A DNA stretch of 64,000 nucleotides from Bacilli bacterium. GTDB lineage: Bacteria > Bacillota_I > Bacilli_A > ML615J-28 > CAG-313. The notes under the pieces were generated by a model. That model was not told the DNA's origin. It worked only from the letters and a program-made list of their open reading frames with translations, and searched no databases. Numbering within the stretch: the stretch's first letter is position 1; every line of letters begins with the position of its first letter. A program made the position numbers and the translations under genes. The stretch lies in assembly GCA_017411715.1 (NCBI GenBank), contig JAFQPO010000014.1, positions 6,161 to 70,160 on the forward strand, read 5' to 3'. Positions 13,786-32,939 of this stretch are shown one piece after another.

Positions 13786-13872
13786 GCGGTTGTGGCGAAA
13801 CTGGTAGACGCGCTACTTTGAGGGGGTAGTGTCTGCAAAGACATGTCGGTTCGAGTCCGATCAACCGCACCA
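13786..13872 (+). tRNA. tRNA-Leu (anticodon GAG), class II with long variable arm, CCA encoded
   Basis: Cloverleaf read manually: acceptor GCGGTTG/CAACCGC, anticodon loop TTGAGGG, T-loop GGTTCGAGTCC. Confidence 0.85.
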
Positions 13873-13994: not shown

Positions 13995-14090
13995 CTAGTG
14001 GGGATTCGAATAGGGGAGTTGTTCGGACTCGAACTAATTAAAGTATTTTGCATTAGTGGGGACTCGAACCTATAAGAGATAATGGTGGAA
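13995..14090. repeat. family-1 module, partial copy A: degenerate array of tRNA-3'-like units followed by TATAAGAGATAATGGTGG
   Basis: GGGGATTCGAAT / GGACTCGAAC / GGGGACTCGAACC, then the conserved ATAAGAGATAATGGTGGAAAT tail. Confidence 0.6.
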
Positions 14091-14230
14091 ATAAAATTAG
14101 TTTTAGTATATAATATAATTAACTCAACGCTCCGTTGATACGAGGTGTCTTTTTAGTCGCTTCACTTCTATATATTTACTTGATATAATGTTTGTGTAAG
14201 CTTACTAAAAATATATAAGGAGGAATTAAA

Positions 14231-15361
14231 ATGTTAAGAACAGTAGGTTCAACAATTAGAGAGTTAAGAAAGAATAAGAATTTAACTCAAGAAGAATTAG
14301 CAGAAGCTATTAATGTTACACCACAAGCAATTTCAAAGTGGGAGAATAATATTGGTTTGCCAGATATTTCGCAAATAATACCATTAGCAACATTCTTTGG
14401 AGTAAGTACAGATATTATATTAGGAATTGCAGAAAATAATAGAAATGAAGAGATTAAAGAAATTCTAAATGCATGTAATGAAAGAAAACTTAAAAAGGAT
14501 GATATTAATAGCTGGTTGTTAATTCAAGAAACTATAAAGAAATATCCATCTAATTTGGATTTATTGCAAGAAAGTATAGAATATGGGATAGCACTTTCTT
14601 ATAAAGGAAATTATTGTTATAATGAAGAATATGCTGAAAGAATATATAAAGAAACAACTAGACAAGCAGAATTAATTATTAAATATTCAAGTAATGCTAC
14701 TAATATCTTACGTGCTCATATGATTATGGTAATGTTACATTCCTCATTTGGTGATGCAGAAAGTGCAGTAAAACACGCTAATGAATTTCCATGGCGTGCA
14801 GATATGACAGTTCATGCGATGTGTGCATGGATAAATAAAGCTTTTAATGAATTTGAAATAGAAAAAATTAATCTACAAAGGGATTTAGAACAGCATATGC
14901 ATTCATCAATTAATACTTTAGGACTACTAGGTATATCATATGAAAATACTAAAAATTATGATGAAGCATTAAAAATGTATTTTACAATATTGAATATAAT
15001 TAACGAAGTATTTAAAGAAGATGATTATGTACCGGCTTTATATAGATTAGAAATGGGTAACCTTTATGCCATGATTGCTAGAACGTATTTAGAAATGGAA
15101 AATATTGATGAATGTTTGAATTATTTAGAACAAATGGTTGATGTAGAAATTTATCATAATAAGGTAAAAGTAAAAGAATTTAAAATTAAAAATAAATATT
15201 TAGACAAATCAGGCACATATAATTATGCTTATGCTGATTATCGTGCTTTTGATAAAGATAGTGATGTTTTATGTTCACTTGATCTAGAATGTTTCCATTC
15301 TATTAAGGATAATGAAAAATATAAAGAAATAGTAGATAAAGCAAAAAACCATCTTAAATAA
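14231..15361 (+). CDS. HTH-XRE transcriptional regulator with C-terminal TPR-like domain (RNPP/Rgg-like architecture)
   Basis: N-terminus LTQEELAEAINVTPQAISKWEN; about 300-aa helical C-terminus. Confidence 0.6.
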   Translation: MLRTVGSTIRELRKNKNLTQEELAEAINVTPQAISKWENNIGLPDISQIIPLATFFGVSTDIILGIAENNRNEEIKEILNACNERKLKKDDINSWLLIQETIKKYPSNLDLLQESIEYGIALSYKGNYCYNEEYAERIYKETTRQAELIIKYSSNATNILRAHMIMVMLHSSFGDAESAVKHANEFPWRADMTVHAMCAWINKAFNEFEIEKINLQRDLEQHMHSSINTLGLLGISYENTKNYDEALKMYFTILNIINEVFKEDDYVPALYRLEMGNLYAMIARTYLEMENIDECLNYLEQMVDVEIYHNKVKVKEFKIKNKYLDKSGTYNYAYADYRAFDKDSDVLCSLDLECFHSIKDNEKYKEIVDKAKNHLK

Positions 15362-15435
15362 ATAATAAAATAATTTAGAAAAACACTTCACTTTTTTAAA
15401 GTTTTGTTACTATATTAATGAAAGGAGATATCATT

Positions 15436-16992
15436 ATGCAAAATAAAGAACAATTAAAAGAATTAATAGCTAATGAATATTTAAATAGATTCTTAACATT
15501 TTACATAAGTAGAACATCATCAATACAAGATGCTGAAGACTTATCACAAAAGGCTGCCTGTGAATGTTTAGATGCACTTAACCGTGTTGATGAAATAAAA
15601 AATGTTAATGCTTATTTTTGGAGTGTTGCTCATAATGTATATAAGAATTATTTAAATAGAAGAGATAATTATATTCTAGATGATGATTATTGTAAAATGC
15701 AAATTGCAGATATTAGTTCTAAAGAAGAAAGTGAAAAACAAGAATTACATAATGATATTAGAAAATCACTAAGTATCCTTTCAGGTTTATATCGTAAGAT
15801 AATAGTAATGTATTATTATCATGAATTAAAAATTAAAGATATTTCAGAACAACTTACTATTAGCCAAGATATGGTTAAGTATTATTTGTCTAATGGTAAG
15901 AAAAAATTAAAGGAGATTTATAATATGAATAAAGAAATCGGTGAAGTAAGTTTTAATCCTAAAGATTTTTCAATTTATTATTCAGGAATTGACTTTGCTA
16001 GTGTTAATGTATGGGAGTTATTTAAAAGAAAGTTGCCTTGTCAAATTGCATTAATATGTTATGCAAAACCTAAAACAGTTAGTGAAATTGCAAGTGTTGT
16101 TGGATGCAGTAGTTGTTTTATAGAAGATGAACTTTCAATTTTATTAAATGCTGGAGTAATTGTTGAAATAGTAAAAGATAAATATCAAACTAATTTTTAC
16201 ATTATTAGCAAAGTTGAACTTGATGTTGTTGATGAGTTATATAAAAAAATGTATGATGAACATACAAAAGAAGTAATTAAAGTTTTTGATGAACATTTTG
16301 AACAAATAAAACAAACAGGAATTTATAACTATAGTGCAACAGTAGATCAATATAAATGGATATTTGCTGATAGAGTAGCAGATATGGATAGAAGAAATAT
16401 GTTTACTAAAGATTCAGATTATCCTAGAATTTTATCGTGTGGTGCAAGAGGACTAGTGTTTGGACTTGAAGCTCCTACTCCAAAAGGAACTTGCGGACAA
16501 ACACCAACATATTTAAACAATCATACATTATGGGCAAGAGATTTATGGATGATAAAAGGTTATAGTTCAAATCAACCTACTTTAAGAGATAAAAGAACAG
16601 CTCAAACAGTTATTGATGTTTATAATGGCATTATTGATGATAACAAAGAAGAGTTATATGCTTATTTAATTAAGAACAATATTTTAGTAAAAGATAGTGG
16701 CATCTTAAAAACAAATATTGCATATTTAAATAAGGAATTTTTAGAATTAATGAAAACTATTAATAAAGAATTATATATTAAATTAGAGAAAAATACTAAT
16801 GAAATTAAAGAGTATATTACTAAAATAGTTAGCAAATCAATACCTAGTAATTTAAAAGACTATATTAATGGATATGTTATTACACTTATGCAGTTCTTTG
16901 CTGGTAATAAGATTATAGAAGCACTTATTGAAAATGGCTTCTTAAATGATAAAATGAAGAATATACAAATAAGCTATTTTATTGATAAGTAA
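15436..16992 (+). CDS. sigma-70-family (ECF-like) protein with about 340-aa C-terminal extension
   Basis: Region 2 (DAEDLSQKAACE) and region 4 HTH (KDISEQLTISQDMVKYYLSNGKKKLKE); ATG with AAAGGAG RBS; paralog of 25133..26770. Confidence 0.6.
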   Translation: MQNKEQLKELIANEYLNRFLTFYISRTSSIQDAEDLSQKAACECLDALNRVDEIKNVNAYFWSVAHNVYKNYLNRRDNYILDDDYCKMQIADISSKEESEKQELHNDIRKSLSILSGLYRKIIVMYYYHELKIKDISEQLTISQDMVKYYLSNGKKKLKEIYNMNKEIGEVSFNPKDFSIYYSGIDFASVNVWELFKRKLPCQIALICYAKPKTVSEIASVVGCSSCFIEDELSILLNAGVIVEIVKDKYQTNFYIISKVELDVVDELYKKMYDEHTKEVIKVFDEHFEQIKQTGIYNYSATVDQYKWIFADRVADMDRRNMFTKDSDYPRILSCGARGLVFGLEAPTPKGTCGQTPTYLNNHTLWARDLWMIKGYSSNQPTLRDKRTAQTVIDVYNGIIDDNKEELYAYLIKNNILVKDSGILKTNIAYLNKEFLELMKTINKELYIKLEKNTNEIKEYITKIVSKSIPSNLKDYINGYVITLMQFFAGNKIIEALIENGFLNDKMKNIQISYFIDK

Positions 16993-17074
16993 AAAAATGC
17001 AACAGCTATATAACCATACTGCAAGATTAGTAGACTAGCAATGTGGCATAAAGCTGTTTTTATTTTATGGATAT

Positions 17075-17124
17075 TGGTGACTGACCACGGACTCGAACCA
17101 ATAAGAGATAATGGTGGAAATATA
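17075..17124. repeat. family-1 module, partial copy B: single tRNA-3'-like unit (TGGTGACTGACCACGGACTCGAACC) plus AATAAGAGATAATGGTGGAAATAT
   Basis: The unit reverse-complement reads GGTTCGAGTCC-GTGGTCAGTC-ACCA, i.e. T-loop plus acceptor plus ACCA; followed by the -10 TGTGGTATAAT at 17134-17144. Confidence 0.6.
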
Positions 17125-17263
17125 GATAAGATTGTGGTATAATGGGATTAATTCTCAAAAAGTGAGAACACATATCCCTTTCTGTGGGGTGGATTTAAAC
17201 ATTATTTAGTATTATAATATTAGTGTAATTGGCCATTACGATACATTAATAAAGGAGAAAATT

Positions 17264-18346
17264 ATGGATTTAGGAAACAATATTAAATTTTATAGAACAC
17301 AAAAAAAGATGACTCAAGAAGAGTTAGCAGAATTACTTGGGACAACATCTAAATCTATTTCAAGATGGGAGCAAAGTTTAACATATCCTGATATTTCATT
17401 ATTGCCTTTTATTGCAAATATTTTTGAAATAACTGTTGATGAACTATTAGGTGTAGAAAAAATTAAACAAGATGAATATGTTAAAGATTTAAAAAACAAG
17501 GCAAATGAGTATCAAAAAAATAACGATTACGATAATGAGTTAATCTTATGGCAAGAGGCATATAAAAAATTGCCTAACAATGAAGAAATCAAAATTTGTT
17601 TAATTTCAATAATGAATACAATTAATATAGTTACAAATAAGGTTAAGTATTCTAGTGAAATAATTAAATTTGCAGAAAGCATTTTAGAAAAATCAACTAA
17701 TAATGTGAACAGAATTTATGCAACACAATGTCTTTTTGATTTGTTCATTCAAATGAATAATTTTGAAATGGCAGAATATTATTTAAAGCAGTTGCCAAGA
17801 AATCTTTCTTTTACATATGACGTAGCAAAAATTAGATATTTAAAAAATGAAGAATTACTTTATGCTATTCAGAAAAACATCGGTGAATTTATAGATGAAA
17901 TTATTAGAGAATCAGAAAAGATAATCAGAAATAATAACACCAATTTAACGGATGAATATAAAAAAGAATATCTTGAAAGATTAATTAAAATTGAAGAGTT
18001 AGTTTTTGTTAAAGATAATGATTATGGTTATAATGCAATATCAATTATTTTTGACTATATTGAATTGACAAAATTAGAGATTAGAACTACAAATAATAAA
18101 AATAAGGTACTATCATATTTTAAAGAAATGATCTATCCTTTAGAATATATTATTAATTTTAAACCACATAATATATTATCGCCTTTTATGAATAAAGTTC
18201 GATGCGAATTTATTGGAGGCTATAGTAATGCATCTATAGATTTAAAGAAACGCATAATTAAAGAACTTGATAATAATGTATTTGAAAAATATCGTTTTAC
18301 TGATGAATATAAAGAATTAATTTATCAAGTAAATGAATTAAAATAA
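17264..18346 (+). CDS. HTH-XRE transcriptional regulator with TPR-like C-terminal domain
   Basis: MTQEELAELLGTTSKSISRWEQ plus a helical repeat C-terminus. Confidence 0.6.
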   Translation: MDLGNNIKFYRTQKKMTQEELAELLGTTSKSISRWEQSLTYPDISLLPFIANIFEITVDELLGVEKIKQDEYVKDLKNKANEYQKNNDYDNELILWQEAYKKLPNNEEIKICLISIMNTINIVTNKVKYSSEIIKFAESILEKSTNNVNRIYATQCLFDLFIQMNNFEMAEYYLKQLPRNLSFTYDVAKIRYLKNEELLYAIQKNIGEFIDEIIRESEKIIRNNNTNLTDEYKKEYLERLIKIEELVFVKDNDYGYNAISIIFDYIELTKLEIRTTNNKNKVLSYFKEMIYPLEYIINFKPHNILSPFMNKVRCEFIGGYSNASIDLKKRIIKELDNNVFEKYRFTDEYKELIYQVNELK

Positions 18347-18356
18347 AAGGATAAGG

Positions 18357-19163
18357 GTGAAATATATGAAAAAGTATTTTAGTGAAAAATTAAGAATTAA
18401 TCCTATAGAAATAAAAGATAAAGTATATTATTATGGTTCAGAGGATGAGGGAGATCAATTTGGTAAAGAACAATTACAAGAATGGATTAATTCAGGGTGG
18501 TTGTTAAGTAATTGGAATCTAAAAATTAATAAAGGAGAAAGTGACGCATTTACAACTCTTGCGAAAAAAGTAGTAGAAATTAATTTACCATATGTCGAAA
18601 TTGCTTGTGGACCAGGATTAGGACTAACCCCATGTATAAAAAAACAAAATCCATCTTTAGAAGCGTTGATATCAGATGCATGCCCATATGTTGTTGAAGG
18701 GTGGAAAGAAGTAATTAGAAAAAATAATCTTACTTCAAATATAAGTTATGCTTCATTCAGCAATACTAATATGCCTTTTAAAGATAATTCCATTGAAGTT
18801 ATAACATCGTATGTTGGAATTGGATCAACAAGATTCAATGGTGAAAATGGCATGAGTGCGATAAACGAAATTTATCGAGTTTTAAATAAAGGTGGATATT
18901 TAATCACTATTGAAAATGAAATAAGTGATTACAAAATAGTAGATGACATATTTAGTGAGGCCAATAGATTTAATTATTATAAACAATTCGAAAATTATGA
19001 AAGTATAGTTGACCGATTAACTAGAGCAGGTTTTACAATAAGTGAGTTAACATTTCTCGGTAAGAAAAAAGTAACTGAAGATGATAATGAGTTAGGAGAA
19101 CTTTCGAAAGAACAAAAGAAAGATGTTTATTGGAACGTATATGCCATTATTGCGAAAAAATAG
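18357..19163 (+). CDS. class I SAM-dependent methyltransferase
   Basis: Motif I VEIACGPGLG; Rossmann-like pattern. Confidence 0.55.
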   Translation: MKYMKKYFSEKLRINPIEIKDKVYYYGSEDEGDQFGKEQLQEWINSGWLLSNWNLKINKGESDAFTTLAKKVVEINLPYVEIACGPGLGLTPCIKKQNPSLEALISDACPYVVEGWKEVIRKNNLTSNISYASFSNTNMPFKDNSIEVITSYVGIGSTRFNGENGMSAINEIYRVLNKGGYLITIENEISDYKIVDDIFSEANRFNYYKQFENYESIVDRLTRAGFTISELTFLGKKKVTEDDNELGELSKEQKKDVYWNVYAIIAKK

Positions 19164-19175
19164 GAGAAATAGATT

Positions 19176-20897
19176 ATGAAAAAGTATTTATTTGTATTTT
19201 TAATTTTGTTGTTATTAACTGGTTGTAATGTTCAAAATAGTCATTCTCATAATCAATGTCCAGAATGTAGCAAATGTATATCTGAAGATTGTAATGGTAC
19301 TGAAAATGAAAAATGTCAAGGACACCAACTAGTACATACACATACTGAATGTCAAGAATGTGGCAAATGTATTGCAGAAGATTGTGATGGAGCAGAAGAA
19401 CTAAAGTGTAGTGGTCACGAACATCATATATATAAATTAACAATAATTGATGAAGATAATTTAATTTATGATAAGCCTACTGAAACAAGTTGTGAATCAG
19501 ATACTAAAATTGTGATGCACTCTCACCCAATAATAGATGCTGATTTAGCAATGTATATAAATGGTGAGTTTCATTCTATTCAAAATACAATAATGGTAAA
19601 CGATGAAACTGTTTGGGAATATTCATTTATAATGCCAGAAAGAGATACTACTATTGAATTTAAGACTCAAACATTAGAATATTTTGATGTAAAAACTGTT
19701 CTTGGTATTCCCTCATTAACAAGAGAAGATATTTTAAGAATAATTTATCATACTATTAATTTAAGTAGCGAACCCATACCGGGTAGTTTAAGAATAGTAA
19801 TTAGTACTACAGATTATGAAGATATTACTTATATGTTATGTTTTTTAGATGCAAATGTGGTTGAAGATAGAAGTAATAATTGGCAAGAGGATGCTGGTAG
19901 TTGTGAGAAGTATTCAATTTGTACAATTGATAAAAAATACGATTTTGAAATAATTAATGGATATATATCAGTTAATAATAAACACTATAAACTTCTAGGG
20001 TATGGACCTGGCATGAGTTATGGAATTATTACTTCTGCTTTTAATACTAATTTAGATTCATATGAGGCATATACATTAGATGGCACAAAAATTGGTGATT
20101 TTAATGGTTTATCTGAATTTGAGTTTTATGAAATTAAGGCTCCTTTAACAGGTGTAGATGATTATGGATATTTAGAAACTGAGTTTGGAAGAATTTATAT
20201 TCACGATTCAAAGACATTTTACATCAAAGATGGCGAAAACTATACTTACTATAAATTAATTTGGGAATGGGAAAAAGACTTTAGCGATATATTTAACAAA
20301 CACACACATACCGAATGTGAAGAATGTGGAAAATGTATAGCAGAAGATTGTAATGGAACTGAAAATGAAAAATGTCAAGGCCATCTTATTATTACTGATG
20401 CAATACCAGTACCTATTACAAGTATTACTTTCAATAATGGAAATGAATTAGAAGAATTTATAAAAAATCATGAAAACTTTAATAAATGGGTCTACATGAA
20501 TGAAATTATTAAAAATAATGAAACTATAAATGTTTATAATAAAAGCTATAGTTTTAATTATGATGAAGAAAAAGATGGCAAATATATTAATCCATATCTT
20601 ACAATAAGTTTCGCATTATATAGTGAAGTATTAGGAACAGATACTGGAGATGACGATGTTTTATATCATTCTATTTCATTTTTAATTAATATTAGACCTA
20701 ATGATTTAAAAGATAACATTAGTTATAAATTTTGCAAATATAGTAATAATAAAAATATGTACAATAACGTAGTGCTTATTTACAGTGGAGATAATGTTAT
20801 TGGAGAGGCATATTATTACACAAAGCTAGATGTTACTAAAAACTGGATAATTGAATTTTTAAATGAAAACTTATTAATGCCAATTAAAATAAAATAA
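19176..20897 (+). CDS. lipoprotein with three Cys-rich repeats (CxxCxKCIxEDCxGxExxKCxGH)
   Basis: Lipobox LLLTGC. Repeats at aa 28-52, 59-82 and 383-406 are near-identical at the DNA level; no recognised domain. Confidence 0.6.
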   Translation: MKKYLFVFLILLLLTGCNVQNSHSHNQCPECSKCISEDCNGTENEKCQGHQLVHTHTECQECGKCIAEDCDGAEELKCSGHEHHIYKLTIIDEDNLIYDKPTETSCESDTKIVMHSHPIIDADLAMYINGEFHSIQNTIMVNDETVWEYSFIMPERDTTIEFKTQTLEYFDVKTVLGIPSLTREDILRIIYHTINLSSEPIPGSLRIVISTTDYEDITYMLCFLDANVVEDRSNNWQEDAGSCEKYSICTIDKKYDFEIINGYISVNNKHYKLLGYGPGMSYGIITSAFNTNLDSYEAYTLDGTKIGDFNGLSEFEFYEIKAPLTGVDDYGYLETEFGRIYIHDSKTFYIKDGENYTYYKLIWEWEKDFSDIFNKHTHTECEECGKCIAEDCNGTENEKCQGHLIITDAIPVPITSITFNNGNELEEFIKNHENFNKWVYMNEIIKNNETINVYNKSYSFNYDEEKDGKYINPYLTISFALYSEVLGTDTGDDDVLYHSISFLINIRPNDLKDNISYKFCKYSNNKNMYNNVVLIYSGDNVIGEAYYYTKLDVTKNWIIEFLNENLLMPIKIK

Positions 20898-20899
20898 AT

Positions 20900-20973
20900 C
20901 AATCAAGCCAGTTAACAACAAAAACGTTAGCTGGCTTTTTAAATAGTAGAAATAAGTGAGGAAATGTGGTATA
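20900..20973 (+). repeat. family-2 terminator/promoter cassette, copy 1
   Basis: GCCAGTTAAC..GTTAGCTGGC hairpin plus TTTTTAAATAGTAGAAATAAGTGAGGAAATGTGGTATAAT. Confidence 0.75.
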
Positions 20974-21055
20974 ATTGATAATATTAAGGGATGAAACCAA
21001 TTGTTGCATTGACTAACTAATACTTAGTGAGTATAATGGTGGTAGAGGTGATAAA

Positions 21056-21577
21056 ATGAATAATAGAATAAAACAATTTAGATTAAAGAATAAACTTACT
21101 CAACAACAGTTGGCAGATTTAATGGATGTTACTCGCCAAGCTGTTACAAGATGGGAAAGTGGTACAGTTGAACCATCAACTGAAAACTTAATTTCACTTG
21201 CACAAATATTTGACTGTAGTGTAGATGAATTAATATGCAATGATTTAATAACTCCAAAAGAGAAAATGGTCATTAAAGAGGTATTAGTTAAAGAAGAAAA
21301 GAAACCATCTTTTTGGAGTATAAATAAAGCAAACATATTTTTATACATTATTAGTGCTATTGCATTTATAACATACTTAGTATTAAGATTTACTACAAAT
21401 TATTCAATAACTGTAGTTGCAGTTGTACTATTTCCAATAATCATTATTTCGACTATAATAAGTTTAATATGTAATATTGATGAAATAAAAGATAAAGTAA
21501 ATTTTAAAAAGTTTATACTACCGCCAATATTAATTATAGTTGGCTTTATATTTTTGGGTATTTTATTGGAGTTTTAA
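21056..21577 (+). CDS. membrane-anchored HTH-XRE regulator
   Basis: N-terminal HTH (LTQQQLADLMDVTRQAVTRWE) plus three C-terminal TM helices. Confidence 0.6.
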   Translation: MNNRIKQFRLKNKLTQQQLADLMDVTRQAVTRWESGTVEPSTENLISLAQIFDCSVDELICNDLITPKEKMVIKEVLVKEEKKPSFWSINKANIFLYIISAIAFITYLVLRFTTNYSITVVAVVLFPIIIISTIISLICNIDEIKDKVNFKKFILPPILIIVGFIFLGILLEF

Positions 21578-21591
21578 AGGGAAGACAGTAT

Positions 21592-22269
21592 ATGAAGAAA
21601 TTTATAATAGTCATAGTATGTTTGATTTTGATGTTGCTCACAGGTTGTGTTCAAGATTCAAAAAATTCACATAATAGTTGTTTAGAATGTGGAAAATGTA
21701 TAGCTGAAGATTGTAATGGATTAGAAGAGGAAAAATGTCAAGGACATCAAGTAATTCATCAACATATTGAATGCAAAGTGTGTGGTAAGTGTGTAGATGT
21801 GAAATGCGATGGCAAAGAAGATGAAAGATGTAACAAAACTTATCAGGTAACGTTAGAATCGCATCAATATATATCATTTACTGATTCGTTAGAAGATCTA
21901 CAATTTTACATTATTCAAGACTACAGCCAATATATTGAATTCATTGAAAAAAATGAAATTAAGGAAATATATTATGATGAAGAGAATAATATCCATTATA
22001 ATGAAGAAATAGCAAATCAATTTACTGAAGAATTTTTTATTGATAGTGCACTTGTCTTAATATCATATTTTACAGCAACTTCATTAGATGATTTAACTGT
22101 TATAAAAAGTTATGAATTAGAAAATGGTATTTTAAATATAAAATTTGGTGTCCCTAAAACAGATTTAATTCCAAAGAATAATTGTTATTTGGTATATATG
22201 TTTAAATGTGACAAACATATATTAGATGATTTTGTAACAGTAGAATATAAGTTTGGAGTAAAAAACTGA
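21592..22269 (+). CDS. lipoprotein with two Cys-rich repeats (same motif as 19176..20897)
   Basis: Lipobox LLTGC; CLECGKCIAEDCNGLEEEKCQGH and CKVCGKCVDVKCDGKEDERC. Confidence 0.55.
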   Translation: MKKFIIVIVCLILMLLTGCVQDSKNSHNSCLECGKCIAEDCNGLEEEKCQGHQVIHQHIECKVCGKCVDVKCDGKEDERCNKTYQVTLESHQYISFTDSLEDLQFYIIQDYSQYIEFIEKNEIKEIYYDEENNIHYNEEIANQFTEEFFIDSALVLISYFTATSLDDLTVIKSYELENGILNIKFGVPKTDLIPKNNCYLVYMFKCDKHILDDFVTVEYKFGVKN

Positions 22270-22324
22270 CATTGTTAAAAATATTAAATATGTCGGTTTA
22301 TGATGCTCACAAATAAAATAACCA

Positions 22325-22398
22325 ATTCAAGCTAGTTAATCAAAAAACGTTAGCTGGCTTTTTAAATAGTAGAAATAAATGAGGAAATGTGGTATAAT
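22325..22398 (+). repeat. family-2 terminator/promoter cassette, copy 2
   Basis: Near-identical to copy 1. Confidence 0.75.
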
Positions 22399-22422
22399 AT
22401 TTACAAGAAGAGGTTTAATTAA

Positions 22423-23781
22423 ATGAAAAATATTACTGATGAACAAAAAATATATGAACTATCATTAATATGGAAAGAAGCTGAGTATAATTTTGCTTTT
22501 TGGCATAAATTTGACAAATCTTTTAATTGGGATGAAGAATATAAAAAAGCATTGGAAAGAGTATTAAAAACTAAAAATATATATGAATATTATAAAGAAC
22601 TAATGAGATTTGTTGCATTATTGAAAGATGGACACACCGGTGTGTGGTTGCCTAAAGAAGTGATTAATTCAGATGAGTATTTTTCTACAATACCGCTTTT
22701 GGTTCAGTTTATTGATAATGAATATGTGATTACGAATGTAGATGTTTCAATTAAAGATATTGTTAAAAGATATAGTATTATTAGAATGATTGATGGAATT
22801 CCAACTAAGAAGTATATTAAAGAAAATATCTATCCATATATTTGGCATGAAAAAGAAGATAGTTGTGCATACCAAACAATTGCTTATTTATTTAGAGGTC
22901 CATTAAATAGTAATGTAGAATTACTACTTGAAGATAATGGTGTTGAATATAATGTTATACTAACTAGAACAAATAAGAAAATACAATATTACTATCCCCA
23001 AGTAAAATTTAGTTCAGAACCCCTAACAACAATTTATGATTCTAAATCACATATGATTCAAATGACAAATGATGGAATTACCATTATTACAATTCCTTCA
23101 ATGATGAATGATGAGTTAGGTGAAGAAATATTTAAGAATTATGAATTATTAAAAAATGCTAAAGGATATATAATTGATATTAGAAATAATGGTGGAGGTA
23201 ACAGTAATAATGCTGACCATGTTGCATCACTATTTATAGGTAATTCCTTTAGAACTGATAATGCATATCATCCAATCCATATTGGAGCTTATAAAGCATG
23301 GGGAAAATATAATAAAGTTAATGAAATGACTGAGGAAGAGTTTAAACAGCAATATGGTGATAATCCTTTCTATGAAAAAATATATAAAATTTGTAATCAC
23401 GTATACTATGAACATAATGATTCAGATACTGAAATTCAAGATGTACCAGGTAAATTAGATGGTCCAATTGTTATTTTAAGTTCAGCATATACTGCATCAG
23501 CGGCAGAAAACTTTATAAATGTCATGAAATATAACACTAATGCAATTATAATCGGAAGTGCTAGTTTTGGATCAACAGGACAACCACTTATGTATGAATT
23601 AGAAAGTGGTGGCGGGTTTAGAATTTGTACTAGAAGAAGTTTAGCATTAGATGGTTCTGAATTTATTAATTATGGATTTAAACCAGATATTGAATGTTGT
23701 TTAAGTATTGATGATTTAAAAACAAATGCAGATTCAGTAATGAAAAAAGCTTTAGAAACTATAAGAGAGAAAATTCATTAA
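22423..23781 (+). CDS. S41-family peptidase (C-terminal processing/tail-specific protease-like)
   Basis: N-terminus LSLIWKEAEYNFAFW; catalytic-Ser region SAYTASAAENF. Confidence 0.55.
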   Translation: MKNITDEQKIYELSLIWKEAEYNFAFWHKFDKSFNWDEEYKKALERVLKTKNIYEYYKELMRFVALLKDGHTGVWLPKEVINSDEYFSTIPLLVQFIDNEYVITNVDVSIKDIVKRYSIIRMIDGIPTKKYIKENIYPYIWHEKEDSCAYQTIAYLFRGPLNSNVELLLEDNGVEYNVILTRTNKKIQYYYPQVKFSSEPLTTIYDSKSHMIQMTNDGITIITIPSMMNDELGEEIFKNYELLKNAKGYIIDIRNNGGGNSNNADHVASLFIGNSFRTDNAYHPIHIGAYKAWGKYNKVNEMTEEEFKQQYGDNPFYEKIYKICNHVYYEHNDSDTEIQDVPGKLDGPIVILSSAYTASAAENFINVMKYNTNAIIIGSASFGSTGQPLMYELESGGGFRICTRRSLALDGSEFINYGFKPDIECCLSIDDLKTNADSVMKKALETIREKIH

Positions 23782-23820
23782 AATGAGTAAATCTTTTATA
23801 ACCATAAGTATTTAAAAAGG

Positions 23821-24591
23821 ATGGATAGTATGAGTAATAAATCAAAAGAAAGAGCGTTTGAAATTATAAAATATTATGTTGACCAAATAAGTAAATTACC
23901 TTTTATAAAATCAATAATATTAGATGGAAGTTTATCAGATGATACATATACGGGTAATAAAGGCAGTGATATTGATATTGTAAATGTTATAGAGTCTAAT
24001 AATTATTATGAAGATAAACTATATTTGTTAAAGTTAATAGAAGACATTGAAAATTTTACTAACAAAGATATTCCTATTTCAAAAGTGGTTTATAACTATA
24101 GTCAATTATTCCATCCTTATGATTATAATTTTGATGTGAATAAAACCAATAAAGATTTAATTGAACTTCCAATTGAAGTATTAAGGATAAAATATTCTGG
24201 CAAAACTCTATATGGTGAAGATATAATTAGTGTTATAGATCAACCAACAAAAGAAGATGTTTTATATTGCAAAGAACTTAATCAACAATTACTTATGAAA
24301 CAAGCTAGTGAGAATCCCAAAGGGTATTCTTCATATTTGGAAACAATTAAGAATCCACCTATGAGTATATTGTGCCAAATTGTAATAACTACAGCAATGG
24401 AAGATTATTTTTTGGTTTTGGGTAAAAATTGTTCTAGTAAACGTAAGATATTAGAATGTATCGAAAAGGATTGGCCTCAATACGAAAAAATCGAATTATT
24501 AAGAATATGTCATAAGTATCGTGTTAATAATAGTTTGTCTAAAGAAGAAGAGATATTAGCGGGCAAATTATATAAAGAATTTTTTGTATAA
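23821..24591 (+). CDS. nucleotidyltransferase-domain protein (Pol-beta superfamily; possibly ANT-like)
   Basis: LDGSLSDDTYTGNKGSDIDIV motif of the GS...D.D type. Confidence 0.45.
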   Translation: MDSMSNKSKERAFEIIKYYVDQISKLPFIKSIILDGSLSDDTYTGNKGSDIDIVNVIESNNYYEDKLYLLKLIEDIENFTNKDIPISKVVYNYSQLFHPYDYNFDVNKTNKDLIELPIEVLRIKYSGKTLYGEDIISVIDQPTKEDVLYCKELNQQLLMKQASENPKGYSSYLETIKNPPMSILCQIVITTAMEDYFLVLGKNCSSKRKILECIEKDWPQYEKIELLRICHKYRVNNSLSKEEEILAGKLYKEFFV

Positions 24592-24820
24592 CTATTGTTG
24601 ATTAAATCATTATATCTCAACATCCTAACCCCATTTTAACACCTGTAGCAGACTTTCAAAAAGCTATTACAAACAAACCAAGGTAAGAAATCAAATGAGG
24701 ATGTGGACCAAATTTGAGACAATTAGACTGTGAGGTAATACTTGCAGTCTTTTCTATTTCTTAAAAAAAAGACTTATAGTCCCATACACCATATAAAAAG
24801 ATAGATATCGTAGCAATTAG

Positions 24821-25048
24821 ACATTTTCTGAAATCTATAAGTCTTCTAGTAAGGCTTATTTTTTTTGCATTTTATATGGTATTTTAGCTAGTTTTAGTTA
24901 GAATACCTTATTTTTTTATACATTTATGAAACATTTAGATTTAAAGACAAGGTGAGACTGACCATGGACTCGAACCATTGACTTACGGGTGTCGAACCTT
25001 TAGTTCTAACGGGATTCGAACCAATAAGAGATAATGGTGGAAATATAT
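24821..25048. repeat. family-1 module, full copy C
   Basis: ACATTTTCTGAAATCTATAAGTCTTC...; terminator hairpin GGTATTTTAGCTA/TAGTTAGAATACC plus T-run; TTTATGAAACATTTAGATTTAAAGACAAGGTGAGACTGACC; three units ending GGACTCGAACC / GTGTCGAACC / GGATTCGAACC; then AATAAGAGATAATGGTGGAAATAT. Confidence 0.7.
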
Positions 25049-25132
25049 TTTAAAAAATAGTATAATTTATTTAAGAAATATGCGAACCATTTTTAAAATT
25101 TATACACTATATAGGTGTAAGAGGTAAATGCT

Positions 25133-26770
25133 ATGAATGAGAAAGAACAATTAATTGAACAACTGGTGGCACAAAAGGATAAAGTATTCTTTTATTGTGT
25201 GAAACGTTGTAATAGTATAATAGATGCTGAAGATTTATCACAAGATATACTGCTTGATATTATGGTTAATATTAACAAAGGTATTAAGATAGAAAACTTT
25301 GATTATTATATTTGGCAAATATGTAAAAACCATTATAGTAAGTATGTAGCTAGAATTGTTAAAGATAGAGATAATATAATGTTTGTTGAAGAAATAGATG
25401 AACCCGGGAATGAACTTTCTTCATTAGACAAACTAATTAATTCTGAAAAACTCGCAATGATTAATGCTGCAATAAAATTATTATCAAGTGATTATTCAGA
25501 AATACTTTATTCATATTATATTGAAGATAGATCGTTATCATTTATAGCAGAAAAATTGAATCTACCTCTTGGAACTGTCAAAAGAAGATTATTTGACATA
25601 AGGAATAAACTTAAGGAGTATTTAAAAATGGAAAGATTAAATGGAAGAAAAGCATTTGTACCTAAAGAATATGAAACACATAGAAGTGGTGGAGCAAGTT
25701 TAAATCCTGAAGAATACACATATGGATTGATCCAACAAAACTTATTAATGCATTCGTATGGTAATCCATGTAGTTTAGAAGATTATTCGTTGGAAATGGG
25801 AATAAGCTTACCATACATTGAAAATATAGTTGATAGTTTAGAGCATGCAACATTATTAATAAAAGATGAAAATGGAAAATATTTAACTAATTTCATAATG
25901 GTAGATAAAAATATAGATCAAAAGGTATTAAAATTAGTTAGACAAAGGGCAAAGGAATATACGAAGTTAATAGTTGAATATTGTAAAAAACATTTTAATG
26001 ATTGGAAAGTTTTAGTCAATAATCCTTTACTTGATGATAATAAATTAATGTGGTCGTATATGTTTAATACTAATAGAAAAGTTGAGTATTTAGATTGCAC
26101 TAAAGAAGAAACCAAAAAAACAATGAGACATCACAGTCATATTGTTGAAGGTGGTAGTTGGGATTTTTGTATGTCAGAAGCTTATGATTCAGAAATAAAA
26201 AATTTCCAAATTAATGAATGTATAGATGGAAATGGTGTGATAGGATTACAAGGATTATTATATCCAGGGCAAAGGAAAATTGATGGTATTAATTCAGAAG
26301 CATTAAAATGTATAAGATGGGATAATAGTGCGAATTGGGATGCTGATTTTGAATTATTTGGATATTTGCTAAAAAATAAAAATATCAAATATTCAGATTG
26401 TGTATATACTCTTAAATCTGCTGTTGATAATATGGTTAAAGAAAACTACTTGCGAATTGAAGATGATACTATAAAATTCAATTTTGTATTATTAGATTTT
26501 GAAAAAGCAACAATTAATAAAGATGATGAATATAGTACTGAATTAATTCCAGCTAAACAAAAAAGAAAAGAAATCACTAATGAAATTATAGATATATTTA
26601 AAGATGTTATTCCTGAATATTTATACAAAGACTTAGATTACATTGCTAATTCATACTTTGTAGCAAATATGAGACAATATGTAGTAATGGCTTTTGAAGA
26701 AGAAGGTTTGATTAAACCAGTTAATGAAAATAGATTTGTATATAATATGTTTTGTTGGGAAAGAAAATAA
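25133..26770 (+). CDS. sigma-70-family (ECF-like) protein with about 370-aa C-terminal extension
   Basis: Region 2 DAEDLSQDILLDI; region 4 SLSFIAEKLNLPLGTVKRRLFDIRNKL; same architecture as 15436..16992. Confidence 0.6.
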   Translation: MNEKEQLIEQLVAQKDKVFFYCVKRCNSIIDAEDLSQDILLDIMVNINKGIKIENFDYYIWQICKNHYSKYVARIVKDRDNIMFVEEIDEPGNELSSLDKLINSEKLAMINAAIKLLSSDYSEILYSYYIEDRSLSFIAEKLNLPLGTVKRRLFDIRNKLKEYLKMERLNGRKAFVPKEYETHRSGGASLNPEEYTYGLIQQNLLMHSYGNPCSLEDYSLEMGISLPYIENIVDSLEHATLLIKDENGKYLTNFIMVDKNIDQKVLKLVRQRAKEYTKLIVEYCKKHFNDWKVLVNNPLLDDNKLMWSYMFNTNRKVEYLDCTKEETKKTMRHHSHIVEGGSWDFCMSEAYDSEIKNFQINECIDGNGVIGLQGLLYPGQRKIDGINSEALKCIRWDNSANWDADFELFGYLLKNKNIKYSDCVYTLKSAVDNMVKENYLRIEDDTIKFNFVLLDFEKATINKDDEYSTELIPAKQKRKEITNEIIDIFKDVIPEYLYKDLDYIANSYFVANMRQYVVMAFEEEGLIKPVNENRFVYNMFCWERK

Positions 26771-26850
26771 AAATGAAGAATATTGTCAGTTAGCTTAGAT
26801 GGTTAACTGACTTTTTTCTTATAAAAGACGTATCATTTATGATGTAATGA

Positions 26851-27077
26851 AACATTTTTTGAAATCTGTAGGTCTTCTAAAAAGAGGATCTATTTATTAT
26901 TTTTATAGACTATATTGCTTGAAATATAGTGAAATAGTCTCTTTTTTTATACATTTATGAAACATTTAGATTTAAATACCTAAGGAGAGCGACCACGGGA
27001 TCGAACCATTGTCTTACGGTTGTTGAACCTTTAATTCTAAGGGGACTAGAACCTATAAGAGACTTAAAATTTGACAC
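26851..27077. repeat. family-1 module, full copy D
   Basis: Same architecture as copy C; units GAGCGACCACGGGATCGAACC / ATTGTCTTACGGTTGTTGAACC / TTTAATTCTAAGGGGACTAGAACC; then CTATAAGAGA and promoter TTGACA..17 bp..TGATATAAT. Confidence 0.7.
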
Positions 27078-27241
27078 TGTATATTTATAAATGATATAAT
27101 ACATTTATAAATATAAAAATGTTGAATATATGTAAGTTTTAAATTTAATTTAACATGTTGTTATTATCATAAAAAGTTGTTTATTAATATTAGACAATTG
27201 TGTTTATTAAGATTTTTTAAGAATTTTTTGAGGAGTAAAAT

Positions 27242-28129
27242 ATGGCAAGTAATAATGAAAAAGGAAAAAAATATGAGGGATTCTCTAAAGAGATATTATT
27301 GTTACAAAATTTAACATGGGATTACGATTCACAAAATAAGAATATTAAGTTTGATAAAGATGTAGAAGATCATAAGATTGAAGGTATTTCTGGTCAAAAA
27401 CATCAAATAGATATACATCTTATTTCAAGTAAAAATCCAGAGTTTCATTTGCTATGTGAATGTAAAGCACATAATCCGGCAGTTGAAAAAACACATGCTT
27501 GCTCATTTGTTACCGTAATTACTGATATTAGAGATAAACATAAAGATTGGAAAATTATTCCTGTTTTTACAGCTGAAGATGGATATCAAAGTGGTGCAAA
27601 AAAAATTTTGCATTATTATAAAATTATTTATTTTGAAATGAAAGACTATAGAAATGTACAAAGAACTTTTAATACTAACATTACCTCAAAAATGCCAAAA
27701 TTTGAAGAACTTAATGGTATATTAGAAGATGGAACTATTGTTGATAGGGATGTTTGCTTAATAAATTATTCAAGAGGTGATAGTTATGGGATAACTAATG
27801 CTATTAAAAGTTTTGAACTTTTTGATAGCAATAATAAGAAAATTGAAAATCTTATAGACTTCACTGGTGAATTTCATACGGGAGATAGATGTATAATGAT
27901 AGATGATTCTGATGAGTTTTATGAAGTGCGTACTAATAAAAAACTTGTTGCGATAAATGGCACTGTAGTTGGGAATACAACATGTAATTTAGGTTCGAGT
28001 CAAACTGTTATCAAATCTAAAGCAGTTACTAATATAATTCTTGATGATGGAAATATATATCGAATTAATAAAGATGGTACATGTGAAAAATATTATGATC
28101 AGGATGAATCAAAAAAGATATTTGAATAG
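27242..28129 (+). CDS. restriction-endonuclease-like (PD-(D/E)xK, Mrr-cat type) N-terminal domain protein
   Basis: GISGQKHQIDIHL...EFHLLCECKAH fits a D..(D/E)xK nuclease core; C-terminal half unassigned. Confidence 0.4.
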   Translation: MASNNEKGKKYEGFSKEILLLQNLTWDYDSQNKNIKFDKDVEDHKIEGISGQKHQIDIHLISSKNPEFHLLCECKAHNPAVEKTHACSFVTVITDIRDKHKDWKIIPVFTAEDGYQSGAKKILHYYKIIYFEMKDYRNVQRTFNTNITSKMPKFEELNGILEDGTIVDRDVCLINYSRGDSYGITNAIKSFELFDSNNKKIENLIDFTGEFHTGDRCIMIDDSDEFYEVRTNKKLVAINGTVVGNTTCNLGSSQTVIKSKAVTNIILDDGNIYRINKDGTCEKYYDQDESKKIFE

Positions 28130-28470
28130 TTTTTTAAAAAAATAATGTTTTTGTAAAAAGAATTTTAAGAAACTTGTAAAATTATGAAACTATATATCGA
28201 ATATAAACTATGATAGCTTTATTAGACTGTATAAAAGTAGTAAATAAGAGCACAATAGAATTCCAATTTAAATTTGATATAATAATTCAAGAATATTTAT
28301 AAAATGCCAGATAGACTATTCTAAATGGCTTTCTTTTACATTAAAATATGAATCAAATGATTTACAAAAATAAATTTATGTGATATAATATATTTGTCAA
28401 TTGGAGAGACACTCATTACTAAAAATGTTATTGACTACATTGTTTATCATAATAAAGGAGGAGACACTCA

Positions 28471-29016
28471 TTGGAAAAAACAGAAGGTAAAAAAACCGTT
28501 ATTGTCATTGATGAGCAAGGTAATAAATTAGAATCTACGTACCCTAAAAGGGCAAAGGGTCTTATTAAGAATGGTAGGGCACGAGTTGTAGATGAAAATA
28601 CTATATGCCTTGTGGACCTACCAAAACATATAATTTTGGAGGAAAATAAAATGAATAATAACAATATAAATTTAGAAGAAAACAAAGAAGTAAAAATTGA
28701 TTTAGCTTACATCATGAATAAGATTGATGAAATTACTAAAATTAATTTGGAATTAGTTAGCAATAAAGATTTAGCTGATATGTCAGTTGTTCTAGGTGCA
28801 AAAAATCCTGTTCAATGCATTTGTGAAACTAATAATAAGATGATTGATTTCTTACAAGATATTTACAAATCACTTCAACCAAAACAAGAATCAGAATTGA
28901 ATACACAAATTATAAATGGTTTAACTAATGCTTTGATGAATGCAATTGAAGAAGAAGCTGACCAATCAGTAATCGCACATATTACTGACACTCTTGCTAA
29001 GTATATTGAAAAGTAA
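28471..29016 (+). CDS. hypothetical protein (TTG start)
   Basis: AAAGGAGGAG RBS; terminator AAGGATTTAGCCGATATGGTTAGATCCTTTT downstream. Confidence 0.4.
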   Translation: MEKTEGKKTVIVIDEQGNKLESTYPKRAKGLIKNGRARVVDENTICLVDLPKHIILEENKMNNNNINLEENKEVKIDLAYIMNKIDEITKINLELVSNKDLADMSVVLGAKNPVQCICETNNKMIDFLQDIYKSLQPKQESELNTQIINGLTNALMNAIEEEADQSVIAHITDTLAKYIEK

Positions 29017-29205
29017 TTAAAAAAATAAAGGATTTAGCCGATATGGTTAGATCCTTTTGTTATTAAGTAAAGCACTTTTTGTTCAGTTGCTAAAATAAGG
29101 TTATTACGACAAAAAGAAACATTTAACACTTTTTATTTTGTAAATTAAGAAAAAAGCACTTTCTGATTTGTAAAACGTTAAAAAAACACTTTTTGTCGTA
29201 ATGAC

Positions 29206-29432
29206 ACATTTTTTGAAATCTATAGGTCTTCTGAAAAGAGGATCTATTTTTTATTTTTAAGGACTATTTTACTTAAAATATAGTGAAATAGTCTCTTTTT
29301 TTACCTGTTTATGAAACATTTAGATTTAAACAATAGGTGAGACTAACCACGGACTCGAACCATTAACTTACGGGATTCGAATGTTAGGTTCTGATGGGAC
29401 TCGAACCTATAAGAGATTGATGATTTGACATG
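29206..29432. repeat. family-1 module, full copy E
   Basis: ACATTTTTTGAAATCTATAGGTCTTC...; hairpin GGACTATTT..AAATAGTCTC plus T-run; units GACTAACCACGGACTCGAACC / ATTAACTTACGGGATTCGAATG / TTAGGTTCTGATGGGACTCGAACC; then CTATAAGAGA and TTGACA..TGGTATAAT. Confidence 0.7.
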
Positions 29433-29646
29433 ATATATTTACTAATGGTATAATATATATAAAGAAATAAAACTTTTTGTCACCTTTTGCTATGTTAAAT
29501 TGTTTTATATATGAAAGGATAAAAGTTCTCTTAATTAGAGATGATATTCTAGTGCATAAATATAAAATATGTATAATCATATAAATAAGTAAAATATTTC
29601 CAACAAAATGGACTTTTATTTGTTATATTAAAAGGAGGTTTATTTA

Positions 29647-30726: not shown

Positions 30727-30729
30727 CCA

Positions 30730-30801
30730 ATCAAAGCTAGTTAACCAAAAAGTTAGCTGGCTTTTTAAATAGTAGAAATAAATGAGAAAATGTGGTATAA
30801 T
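30730..30801 (+). repeat. family-2 terminator/promoter cassette, copy 3
   Basis: AAGCTAGTTAACC..GTTAGCTGGCTTTTTAAATAGTAGAAATAAATGAGAAAATGTGGTATAAT. Confidence 0.75.
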
Positions 30802-30824
30802 ACTTTCATAAGAGGTGCATTAAT

Positions 30825-31157
30825 ATGAAAGAACTAACAACAAAAGAACAATATGAATATTTTGAAGAAACATTTAATAAATTTAATACTACTCTTTTAA
30901 ACCAAAGTGATGATGATATTGAATATATAATTTTTGAAGATATTATAGATAATGTTGTTTCATTTTTGCATTCAATAGTGATAGATAAATTATTAGAAGA
31001 AAAATATATTAATAGTGAAGTATATGATTTATGTTGTGATTTTAGAAAACAATTTCTAGTGTTAGAAGAAAAATCATTAAGAAGTGCAACTGAAATTAGA
31101 AAAAGTAAAGAATGGCTAGACTTAATAAAATTAGCTGATGAGATTAAGAATAAATAA
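30825..31157 (+). CDS. hypothetical small soluble protein
   Basis: ORF directly downstream of a family-2 cassette. Confidence 0.4.
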   Translation: MKELTTKEQYEYFEETFNKFNTTLLNQSDDDIEYIIFEDIIDNVVSFLHSIVIDKLLEEKYINSEVYDLCCDFRKQFLVLEEKSLRSATEIRKSKEWLDLIKLADEIKNK

Positions 31158-31168
31158 TAGGAGAGCTT

Positions 31169-31425: not shown

Positions 31426-31466
31426 AGTTATGCATAAATGATTGTATAAGAAAGGATATTGATTAT

Positions 31467-32018: not shown

Positions 32019-32021
32019 CTA

Positions 32022-32839: not shown

Positions 32840-32845
32840 ACATAG

Positions 32846-32917: not shown

Positions 32918-32939
32918 TTATAATGTGAGGTATTGATGT

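Follow-up and report, generated by a model that had tools for sequence, protein, structure and literature searches.

Two ECF sigma factor genes with a fused soluble extension and a conserved, putatively functional internal translation start

The stretch of DNA analysed here, referred to as the window, comprises 64,000 nucleotides of a Bacilli bacterium genome (contig JAFQPO010000014.1) with a GC content of about 27%, and its forward strand carries every gene from 10 to 34 kb. Two of these genes, sigma A and sigma B, encode sigma-70-like proteins of 518 and 545 residues (Table 1). An earlier note made from the sequence alone, the original prediction, had described the two proteins as paralogs with regions 2 and 4 resembling those of extracytoplasmic function (ECF) sigma factors, each followed by a C-terminal extension of about 350 residues, and had proposed that the extension may be a fused regulatory or anti-sigma-like domain. 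Among the signalling mechanisms of bacteria, ECF sigma factors are a major one. The comparative analysis presented here reveals a Shine-Dalgarno (SD) sequence and an in-frame start codon conserved at the junction of the sigma-4 domain and the extension, from which each gene would produce the extension alone in addition to the fusion.

Sigma A and sigma B are ECF-type (group 4) sigma-70 factors. In a Pfam scan sigma A passed the cut-offs for Sigma70_r4_2 (43.3 bits), r4 (28.0 bits) and r2 (25.8 bits, cut-off 24), and sigma B passed those for r4 (35.1 bits) and r4_2 (33.2 bits), with r2 at 18.2 bits lying under the cut-off of 24; neither protein matched Sigma70_r3 or r1. Both passed the NCBIfam model TIGR02937 (sigma70-ECF, cut-off 42.9 bits), sigma A with 78.4 bits and sigma B with 67.3 bits over residues 9-164, so that the predicted sigma-70 character of the N-terminal regions stands on both this model and the r4 models. 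The heptapeptide DAEDLSQ is present in both. Sequence and fold searches of the Protein Data Bank (PDB) with the N-terminal 165 residues or so returned ECF sigma factors only, for example SigW (5wuq). We place the start of sigma A at 15436 and not at 15418, because AAGGAG (15422-15427) precedes the former by 8 nt and nothing comparable precedes the latter; sigma B has its own SD, AGAGGT, at 25120-25125. In the AlphaFold model of sigma A the linker that joins sigma-2 to sigma-4 is disordered.

The paralogy of the two proteins extends over their whole length. BLASTP aligned them with 28% identity over residues 1-292 (E 3e-25), a joint profile spans both from end to end, and their distal 105 residues or so align in profile-profile comparison with 93.9% probability; the part from about residue 295 to 400-420 fails to align in the same comparison. 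Close orthologs share 80-94% identity with sigma A and 83-95% with sigma B, and the closest relatives of both genes come from metagenome-assembled genomes (MAGs) of uncultured gut "Bacilli bacterium" from human, goat and roe deer. The A and B subfamilies occur together in other genomes, sometimes only a few kb apart (contigs labelled here L001, L006, L012 and L051), and the duplication is therefore old. Neither protein has a transmembrane (TM) helix, in agreement with the original prediction: the maximal Kyte-Doolittle mean over 19 residues is 1.47 for sigma A and 0.94 for sigma B, as against 2.98 for the membrane XRE protein at 21056 that served as control.

Table 1. Features of the sigma A and sigma B loci, in window coordinates. 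SD, Shine-Dalgarno sequence; HTH, helix-turn-helix; TPR, tetratricopeptide repeat.
Feature	Nucleotides	Residues	Strand	Details
XRE HTH + TPR-like regulator	14231-15361		+	Pfam HTH_3 63 bits; several TPR families just under cut-off
Putative ECF-type (autoregulatory) promoter, sigma A	15386-15415		+	CTTCAC 15386-15391, N17, ACTATAT 15409-15415
Sigma A	15436-16992	518 aa	+	sigma-2 ~13-77, linker 77-98, sigma-4 ~107-167, extension 168-518
Putative internal ribosome-binding site, sigma A	15910-15927	159-164	+	SD AAGGAG 15910-15915 (K159-E160), 9-nt spacer, ATG 15925-15927 (M164)
Predicted nested in-frame product, sigma A	15925-16992	355 aa	+	extension alone
Winged helix 1, sigma A	16024-16206	197-257	+	AlphaFold model
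Long helix, sigma A		259-293	+	35 residues; AlphaFold model
Variable helix/beta-rich insert, sigma A		294-378	+	includes W308 and YPxILSCG motif
Winged helix 2 (winged-helix-like unit), sigma A	16570-16725	379-430	+	AlphaFold model
Long helical hairpin, sigma A		433-499	+	AlphaFold model
Family-1 module downstream of sigma A	17057-17154		+	antisense tRNA 3'-end-like fragment, then TGGAAA 17115, TATAAT to 17143
Family-1 module upstream of sigma B	24934-25077		+	sigma-A-type TGGAAA 25038-25043, N17, TATAAT 25061-25066
Putative ECF-type (autoregulatory) promoter, sigma B	25082-25112		+	GCGAACC 25082-25088, N17, ACTATAT 25106-25112
Sigma B	25133-26770	545 aa	+	sigma-2 ~15-72, sigma-4 ~109-164, extension 166-545
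Putative internal ribosome-binding site, sigma B	25613-25630		+	SD AAGGAG 25613-25618, 9-nt spacer, ATG 25628-25630 (M166)
Predicted nested in-frame product, sigma B	25628-26770	380 aa	+	extension alone
Intrinsic-terminator-like hairpin ending sigma B unit	26785-26811		+	

A profile of the extension matches the representatives of at least 1,667 clusters at 50% identity, 1,246 of them at E<=1e-10. Nearly all of these proteins are 510-560 residues long with the domain starting at residue 160-200. The members that carry a name belong to Bacilli, Oscillospiraceae/Ruminococcaceae, Clostridia, Herbinix and one Anaerolineae MAG; the family is one of Clostridia and Bacilli from gut and digesters, and most members come from MAGs. 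A finished genome contributes WP_013483710.1, encoded on plasmid pRUMAL02 of Ruminococcus albus 7, which scores 152 bits against the extension profile. No match to the sigma family was found in phage records. Purifying selection acts along the full length of the protein, and in full-length family members the extension is always fused to the sigma core, as would fit a regulatory or anti-sigma-like role of the extension.

Among the 150 best matches to the profile, about 17 look like stand-alone extension proteins, with 360-390 residues and a start at the internal Met. We considered them as possible split genes and rejected them. All four that were checked are truncated fusions lying 20-97 nt from a contig end, hence such copies are no evidence for split genes; they show only that gene callers find the internal Met a convincing start. 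In two metagenomic family members an in-frame stop interrupts the extension (L032 near 3180 and L041 near 600), and these are either pseudogenes or assembly errors. In another contig (L010, 33-3039) a truncated member is followed by a canonical ECF sigma factor of 161 residues, a 95-residue open reading frame (ORF) and a 319-residue zinc-ribbon protein, which is an ordinary sigma/anti-sigma-like arrangement.

The extension gave no match in Pfam or NCBIfam or among PDB sequences or PDB profiles, apart from a weak HTH_5 hit in the Pfam scan (E 0.005) and a weak sequence match to Lrs14. Its fold was modelled with AlphaFold2 from an alignment of 87 sequences. The mean predicted local distance difference test score (pLDDT) is 87.7 for full-length sigma A and 95.7 for the extension alone, for which the predicted template modelling score is 0.91; pLDDT falls at the junction between sigma-4 and the extension. 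According to the model the extension starts with a beta strand, ahead of winged helix 1, and consists of two winged-helix-plus-helix units that flank a variable, helix- and beta-rich insert. The two units are homologous to each other (hhalign probability 90%, E 1.5e-6), and the extension therefore stems from an internal duplication, with a fast-evolving middle part inserted. Residues of the insert are invariant within a subfamily and differ between subfamilies; in the A subfamily the invariant ones are W308, Y329-P330, I332-L333-S334-C335-G336, P357 and D369. Foldseek returned no whole-domain match in the PDB. Locally, winged helix 1 resembles ArsR, MarR and IdeR proteins over 55-70 residues with a root-mean-square deviation (rmsd) of about 2 A (3cuo, 5hs9, 4k2e), all at E>0.1. 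The confidently modelled fold would thus appear to be that of an undescribed domain.

Despite the winged helices, the charge of the extension makes DNA binding unlikely. The third helix of winged helix 1 has a mean net charge of -3.1 and an isoelectric point of 4.05 across the 87 sequences and contains a conserved YIEDE motif, and the mean net charge of the whole extension is -7.4, against +3.6 for sigma-4. The basic or polar recognition helix of ArsR and MarR proteins is not found in it. Metal or redox sensing was rejected as well, since no Cys or His column is conserved beyond about 50% occupancy. From sequence and model together we infer that the extension is a protein-interaction and sensor domain and not a DNA-binding, metal-sensing or membrane-anchored one. 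When the sigma part of the full-length model is superposed on known structures, its rmsd is 8-13 A on compact sigma factors bound to an anti-sigma and 22-23 A on holoenzyme-bound ones.

At the boundary of sigma-4 and the extension, both genes contain an in-frame ATG preceded at a spacing of 9 nt by AAGGAG, and this arrangement is a property of the family. The boundary Met (M164 of sigma A, M166 of sigma B) occurs in 94% of the 87 aligned sequences, and a Met lies at most 8 residues before the domain start in 100 of 107 cluster representatives. AAGGAG(G), 9 nt and ATG stand at this place in nearly every family gene whose DNA is available. The amino acids do not account for the codons used: in 27 unique family genes only 3 of the 128 other K-E dipeptides (2.3%) are encoded by AAG-GAG, AAG being used for 23% of Lys and GAG for 18% of Glu in these genes. 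Within each ORF the internal site falls in the top 0.5-1.5% of duplex energies with the anti-SD sequence, and it matches the strength of the SD with which the gene itself begins. In lineages that share less than 50% identity, the ATG lies within one codon of the sigma-4/extension boundary in 14 of 14; an SD duplex of at least -7 kcal/mol strength accompanies it in 11 of the 14, compared with 3.5% among 171 Met codons at other internal positions (binomial P~3e-14).

What is more, the SD has been retained where the amino acids have changed. In one lineage (L052) the residues are T-E, encoded as ACG-GAG-G, and in R. albus they are R-E, encoded as AGG-GAG-G; in two others (L049, L011) K-R-G is encoded with AGA-GGT or CGA-GGT and the Met has moved by one residue. 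Val replaces the start residue in two lineages with DNA available, L032 being one of them. The codon is GTG in both, with AAGGAG(G) 9 nt upstream, and GTG makes up about 17-21% of the Val codons of those two genes. The SD is thus conserved 5-10 nt before an in-frame start beyond what the amino acid sequence demands. Since SD and start are conserved through synonymous codon choice, the free extension is probably co-translated with the fusion, and on the simplest reading the site is an internal ribosome-binding site that functions, giving rise to the extension by itself besides the fusion. With such a start at the domain boundary, the lack of a separate anti-sigma gene may be moot. We found no description of an internal start in sigma factors in the literature searched, nor one of the fold, internal start or promoter of this particular family.

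A second conserved element lies in front of the genes. ACTATA(T) is found directly upstream of nearly every family gene with DNA available and is near-invariant in an alignment of 17 sequences with GC contents of 24-57%. Seventeen nucleotides before it, the -35-like element is GAACC, CAACC or TAACC in the B subfamily and in distant clades, that of R. albus among them, and CTTCAC or TTATC in the A subfamily. In the window the bipartite motif occurs only before the two sigma genes, once in its A-type and once in its B-type form. Downstream of the -10 element, the sequence AAGTGAAAG is conserved as well. An AAC-containing -35 element, a fixed spacer and a -35 variation that parallels the sigma-4 subfamily are what is expected of ECF autoregulation. 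We infer that the sigma factors would recognise this motif and positively regulate their own genes from it.

In relatives the motif is also found before other genes: in L012 (2161-5840), and also in L013 and L014, a full B-type copy, AACC-N17-CACTATAT-AAGTGAAGAGGT, precedes a two-gene ATP-binding cassette (ABC) transporter operon adjoining a pair of family sigma genes, which makes this operon a candidate regulon member. Many A-clade relatives (L015 5932-6000, L030-L038, L045) carry the palindrome GTAAGCnGCTTAC after the -10 element in the 5' leader, possibly as an operator or a hairpin of the leader; both window genes lack it.

The explanation that we favour overall, with slightly better than even confidence, is a family of fused ECF sigma factors with a nested, separately translated regulatory extension and autoregulation. 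In one large Firmicutes family, to which both genes belong, a sigma-2/sigma-4 core is permanently fused to a cytoplasmic, putatively regulatory domain of about 350 residues. The acidic winged helices would mediate protein contacts, whether to the basic sigma-4, to a partner protein or to a second copy of the extension, and the variable beta-rich insert would be the likely signal-recognition part. Each gene would give two proteins, the full-length fusion and, from the internal SD and start, the extension alone; the latter would work in trans on the tethered form, which it may inhibit or buffer like an anti-sigma or join as a dimer partner, and regulate sigma activity together with the tethered domain. 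One ORF would in this way do what takes a pair of sigma and anti-sigma genes in ordinary ECF systems. Transcription would begin at a basal sigma-A-type promoter and be amplified from the family-specific ECF-like promoter (GAACC or CTTCAC, N17, ACTATAT), resulting in positive autoregulation. The more specific proposition, that a single ORF encodes an ECF sigma factor together with its own trans-acting regulator in a nested sigma/anti-sigma architecture undescribed for sigma factors, we hold to have somewhat less than an even chance of being right.

Several observations weigh against the nested, autoregulated design. Three lineages (L017, L010, L051a) have a weak SD, GAAGGT. In the model the boundary Met belongs to the final turn of the sigma-4 helix (H144-167), and it could be structural; the SD and ATG could also serve as a pause site in translation, or be a relic of an ancient fusion of a sigma gene with a partner gene. 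Known anti-sigma domains show no similarity to the extension, and the superposition on anti-sigma-bound sigma factors is the only hint of a contact between it and sigma-2/sigma-4. As for the promoter, its ACTATAT is unlike the common CGT-type -10 of ECF sigma factors, and a different regulator could have its operator in the upstream motif.

The proteins could instead be ordinary one-component ECF sigma factors in which the extension is purely a sensor and regulator in cis, like that of ECF41, ECF42 and ECF56, and the SD and ATG are a relic or a pause site. Universal fusion, the failure to find true stand-alone copies and the location of the boundary Met inside the modelled sigma-4 helix are all consistent with this, and the known ECF groups with C-terminal extensions do work in cis (PMC8999054, PMC7826278). 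On the other hand, the SD is kept at synonymous sites across lineages of 20-50% identity and 24-57% GC, is preserved through different amino acid solutions at a spacing fixed at 9 nt, and is followed by GTG in the only cases where Val stands at the start position. A relic would have decayed, and a pause site needs no in-frame start codon. We therefore regard regulation in cis only as unlikely, though it is the alternative we take most seriously. It is improbable that the extension is an additional DNA-binding module, serving wider promoter recognition or acting as a conventional transcription factor. The two winged-helix-like units of the model, the local Foldseek matches to the DNA-binding domains of ArsR, MarR and IdeR, the weak HTH_5 and Lrs14 matches and the conserved AAGTGAAAG would fit such a module, but the recognition helices are acidic, as is the domain as a whole, and the winged-helix matches do not come below E 0.1.

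Alternatively, the extension could dock a separately encoded partner, for example a neighbouring XRE, TPR or Sel1 protein, and be activated by this interaction as has been proposed for ECF42. Genes for such proteins do adjoin family members in several unrelated contexts: XRE HTH_3, TPR or Sel1 neighbours are found at positions -1 and +1 of sigma A in the window, at +1 in L012, L015, L004 and L017 (Sel1 in the last) and at -1 in L051. Yet they are missing next to sigma B in the window and in L019, L049, L052 and L053, and orthologs sharing 91-94% identity with sigma A have different neighbours. The association is thus neither universal nor kept among close orthologs, and XRE genes are plentiful throughout the island in any case; we give docking as little credence as DNA binding. 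Finally, an artefact can be dismissed almost entirely, be it a sigma gene joined to an unrelated gene downstream of it by misassembly or miscalling or a pseudogene in decay. In-frame stops in two members (L032, L041) and the predominance of MAGs among the sources might suggest it, but a continuous ORF of 510-560 residues in hundreds of independent assemblies and on the finished R. albus 7 plasmid effectively refutes it, and purifying selection along the full length and the high AlphaFold confidence agree.

No anti-sigma Pfam family was recognised among the neighbours of at least 100 residues scanned in the window or among the neighbours in 12 other contexts, which bears out the earlier statement that no separate anti-sigma gene follows the sigma genes. 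The proteins belong to the generic class of ECF sigma factors that have a C-terminal extension of more than 50 residues and no anti-sigma gene, with extensions of 350-380 residues. They do not belong to ECF41/56/205/294/295 (SnoaL-like), ECF42 (TPR), ECF238/287/288 (Cys-rich), ECF264 (DUF1835) or ECF263 (TM), since the extension matches neither SnoaL nor TPR nor DUF1835, conserves no Cys/His cluster and lacks a TM helix. Nor is the extension a class I anti-sigma domain of a fusion class already catalogued (ECF01-Gob, IutY-like, ECF48/52/53): zf-HC2, RskA, the Cys/His cluster and the TM helix are all absent, and the modelled beta strand and winged helix at its beginning are unlike the helical bundle of the anti-sigma domain, which often bears HxxxCxxC and as a rule has TM helices after it. 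Of the proposed fused regulatory or anti-sigma-like domain, what survives is that the extension is fused, soluble and compatible with a regulatory role; a likeness to known anti-sigma domains was not found.

In common with the one-component groups ECF41, ECF42, ECF56 and ECF238, the present family has a sigma-2/sigma-4 core with a soluble fused C-terminal domain (PMC7826278, PMC8999054), lacks a cognate anti-sigma gene, conserves the junction between sigma-4 and extension, and has an extension whose type follows the subfamily of the sigma core. It differs from them in the length of the extension, about 350 residues as opposed to about 20-200, in the tandem winged-helix-plus-helix modules and beta-rich insert that no Pfam model covers, and in having no conserved Cys/His cluster. 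A conserved internal SD and start at the boundary was not found described for the one-component groups in PMC7826278, PMC8999054 and the abstract of PMC3426412. About 15 extension-bearing ECF groups are without a known mechanism (PMC8999054). One of them is ECF262, with SFB89493.1 of Ruminococcus albus as an example, which bears an extension and has not been studied mechanistically (PMC8999054 Table 2; Casas-Pastor 2021 classification). As R. albus 7 carries a clear family member, the present family, which like ECF262 has a Firmicutes/Ruminococcus origin and a regulatory extension with no named domain, may be ECF262, already catalogued but uncharacterised.

The family can also be compared with canonical sigma/anti-sigma operons such as SigW-RsiW and SigE-RseA. 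Like these, it would have one autoregulated transcript for sigma factor and regulator, the SD of the putative regulator lies in the last codons of sigma-4, and the B type has AAC in its -35 element. Unlike them, it has no stop codon between the two parts, so that the covalent fusion is made too; the regulator-like part has no anti-sigma fold, zinc motif or TM helix, and the -10 element is ACTATAT and not of the CGT type. Internal in-frame starts that give a truncated product occur in the genes for CheA-L/CheA-S, ClpB-93/79, IF2 alpha/beta and the Tn5 transposase and its inhibitor. As in those genes, the SD and start lie inside the ORF at a domain boundary, and the predicted short form, having no N-terminal effector domain, could modulate the long one.

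If the nested reading of the family is correct, a sigma factor and its regulator would be made in fixed stoichiometry from one ORF, one copy of the regulator tethered and one free, and this architecture would be shared by upwards of a thousand protein clusters from gut and anaerobic Firmicutes. The family is large and common in Firmicutes of the human and animal gut, and its 350-residue domain has no Pfam, NCBIfam or PDB counterpart. Such a compact nested design would bear on the evolution of sigma/anti-sigma pairs by fusion and on orthogonal switches for synthetic biology. R. albus 7 is a cultured organism carrying a member (pRUMAL02, WP_013483710.1), and the promoter motif offers a handle on the regulon. 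What the analysis adds is a confident fold model of an apparently undescribed domain, a putative promoter motif common to the family and, most of all, strong comparative evidence pointing to a nested start.

The surroundings of the two genes suggest a variable region. RNase R, SmpB, a thioesterase and tRNA-Leu(GAG) (13786-13872) directly precede a stretch of about 14-34 kb in which the GC content drops to 22-27%, from 28-30% in the flanks, and which contains many short transcription units. The dip immediately following the tRNA gene suggests that 14000-34000 is a variable island adjoining it; no integrase was seen among the ORFs scanned in this stretch. The original prediction had called the island rich in transcription factors, and the abundance of XRE regulators confirms this: the protein encoded at 14231 is an XRE protein with TPR-like repeats, that at 17264 is an XRE protein, and that at 21056 combines XRE with a TM helix. 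The XRE-TPR gene at 14231 ends 74 bp upstream of sigma A. It is preceded by a sigma-A-type promoter-like site, TGGAAA-N17-TATAAT at 14086-14114, from which sigma A can be reached by read-through; no terminator was found between this site and 15436, and the XRE-TPR gene and sigma A are probably co-transcribed from it.

The XRE proteins of the window match the PADLOC models RmrA and capH in their HTH region. Those at 14231-15361 and 17264-18346, with about 360-376 residues, match several RmrA models of 380-400 residues past the HTH as well, the former over residues 6-169. Their architecture of XRE HTH plus helical or TPR repeats recalls peptide-sensing regulators of the RNPP type. A phage or defence context for the sigma factors was considered and rejected; phage records had no match, and PADLOC had none for the sigma proteins. 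An S41-family peptidase of 452 residues (22423-23781), in which no signal peptide is obvious by eye, has its gene in the interval from sigma A to sigma B, preceded by a family-2 promoter. Proteolytic activation by it was rejected, as no S41 genes were found near family members elsewhere. Two lipoproteins (19176-20897 and 21592-22269) contain repeated Cys-rich modules of about 31 residues, HxHxxCxECGKCIAEDCNGxExEKCQGH, with no Pfam family; five DNA copies are 60-81% identical to the reference copy.

The sigma genes had also been described as lying downstream of a family-1 module or an XRE/TPR regulator. This holds literally in the window, where sigma B follows the module at 24934-25077 and sigma A the gene at 14231, but it is not a conserved linkage, being lost even among orthologs with 80-94% identity. 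Family-1 modules are found in the window at 14025-14125, 17057-17154, 24934-25077, 26983-27100 and 29319-29450, and in the goat MAG L003 at 9835-9893 and 11655. They consist of two or three tandem antisense copies of a tRNA T-arm/3'-end-like motif, GGACTCGAACC, followed by ATAAGAGAT and a TGGAAA-N17-TATAAT promoter. At 17075-17099, for example, a tRNA 3' end stands in reverse complement, its CCA included; ARAGORN and Rfam called no tRNA in the modules. The promoter of the module downstream of sigma A is predicted to drive the XRE gene at 17264, and terminator-like hairpins (24725-24750, 24878-24907) come before the module that lies upstream of sigma B. In L003 the modules lie on both sides of the sigma A ortholog, whereas in the window the upstream one lies before the XRE-TPR gene, a difference that makes them look like boundaries of exchangeable cassettes or remnants of repeated att sites.

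The suggestions that the island's transcription factors act on family-2 promoters or on arrays of a 22-bp unit found no support as regards the sigma factors. Tandem Repeats Finder found no such arrays near the sigma genes. The family-2 promoter consensus reads TAGAAA-N17-TGgTATAAT, which is of the sigma-A type and has none of the ECF-like family motif; this motif being limited to the sigma genes in the window, nothing ties these sigma factors to family-2. There are six family-2 copies of 84 nt each, at 20892-20975, 22315-22398, 30718-30801, 31342-31425, 32014-32097 and 32834-32917. Every copy comprises a terminator hairpin (AGCCAGTTAAC...GTTAGCTGGCTTTTT) and then a sigma-A-type extended -10 promoter (TAGAAA...TGTGGTATAAT), and each precedes a small gene.

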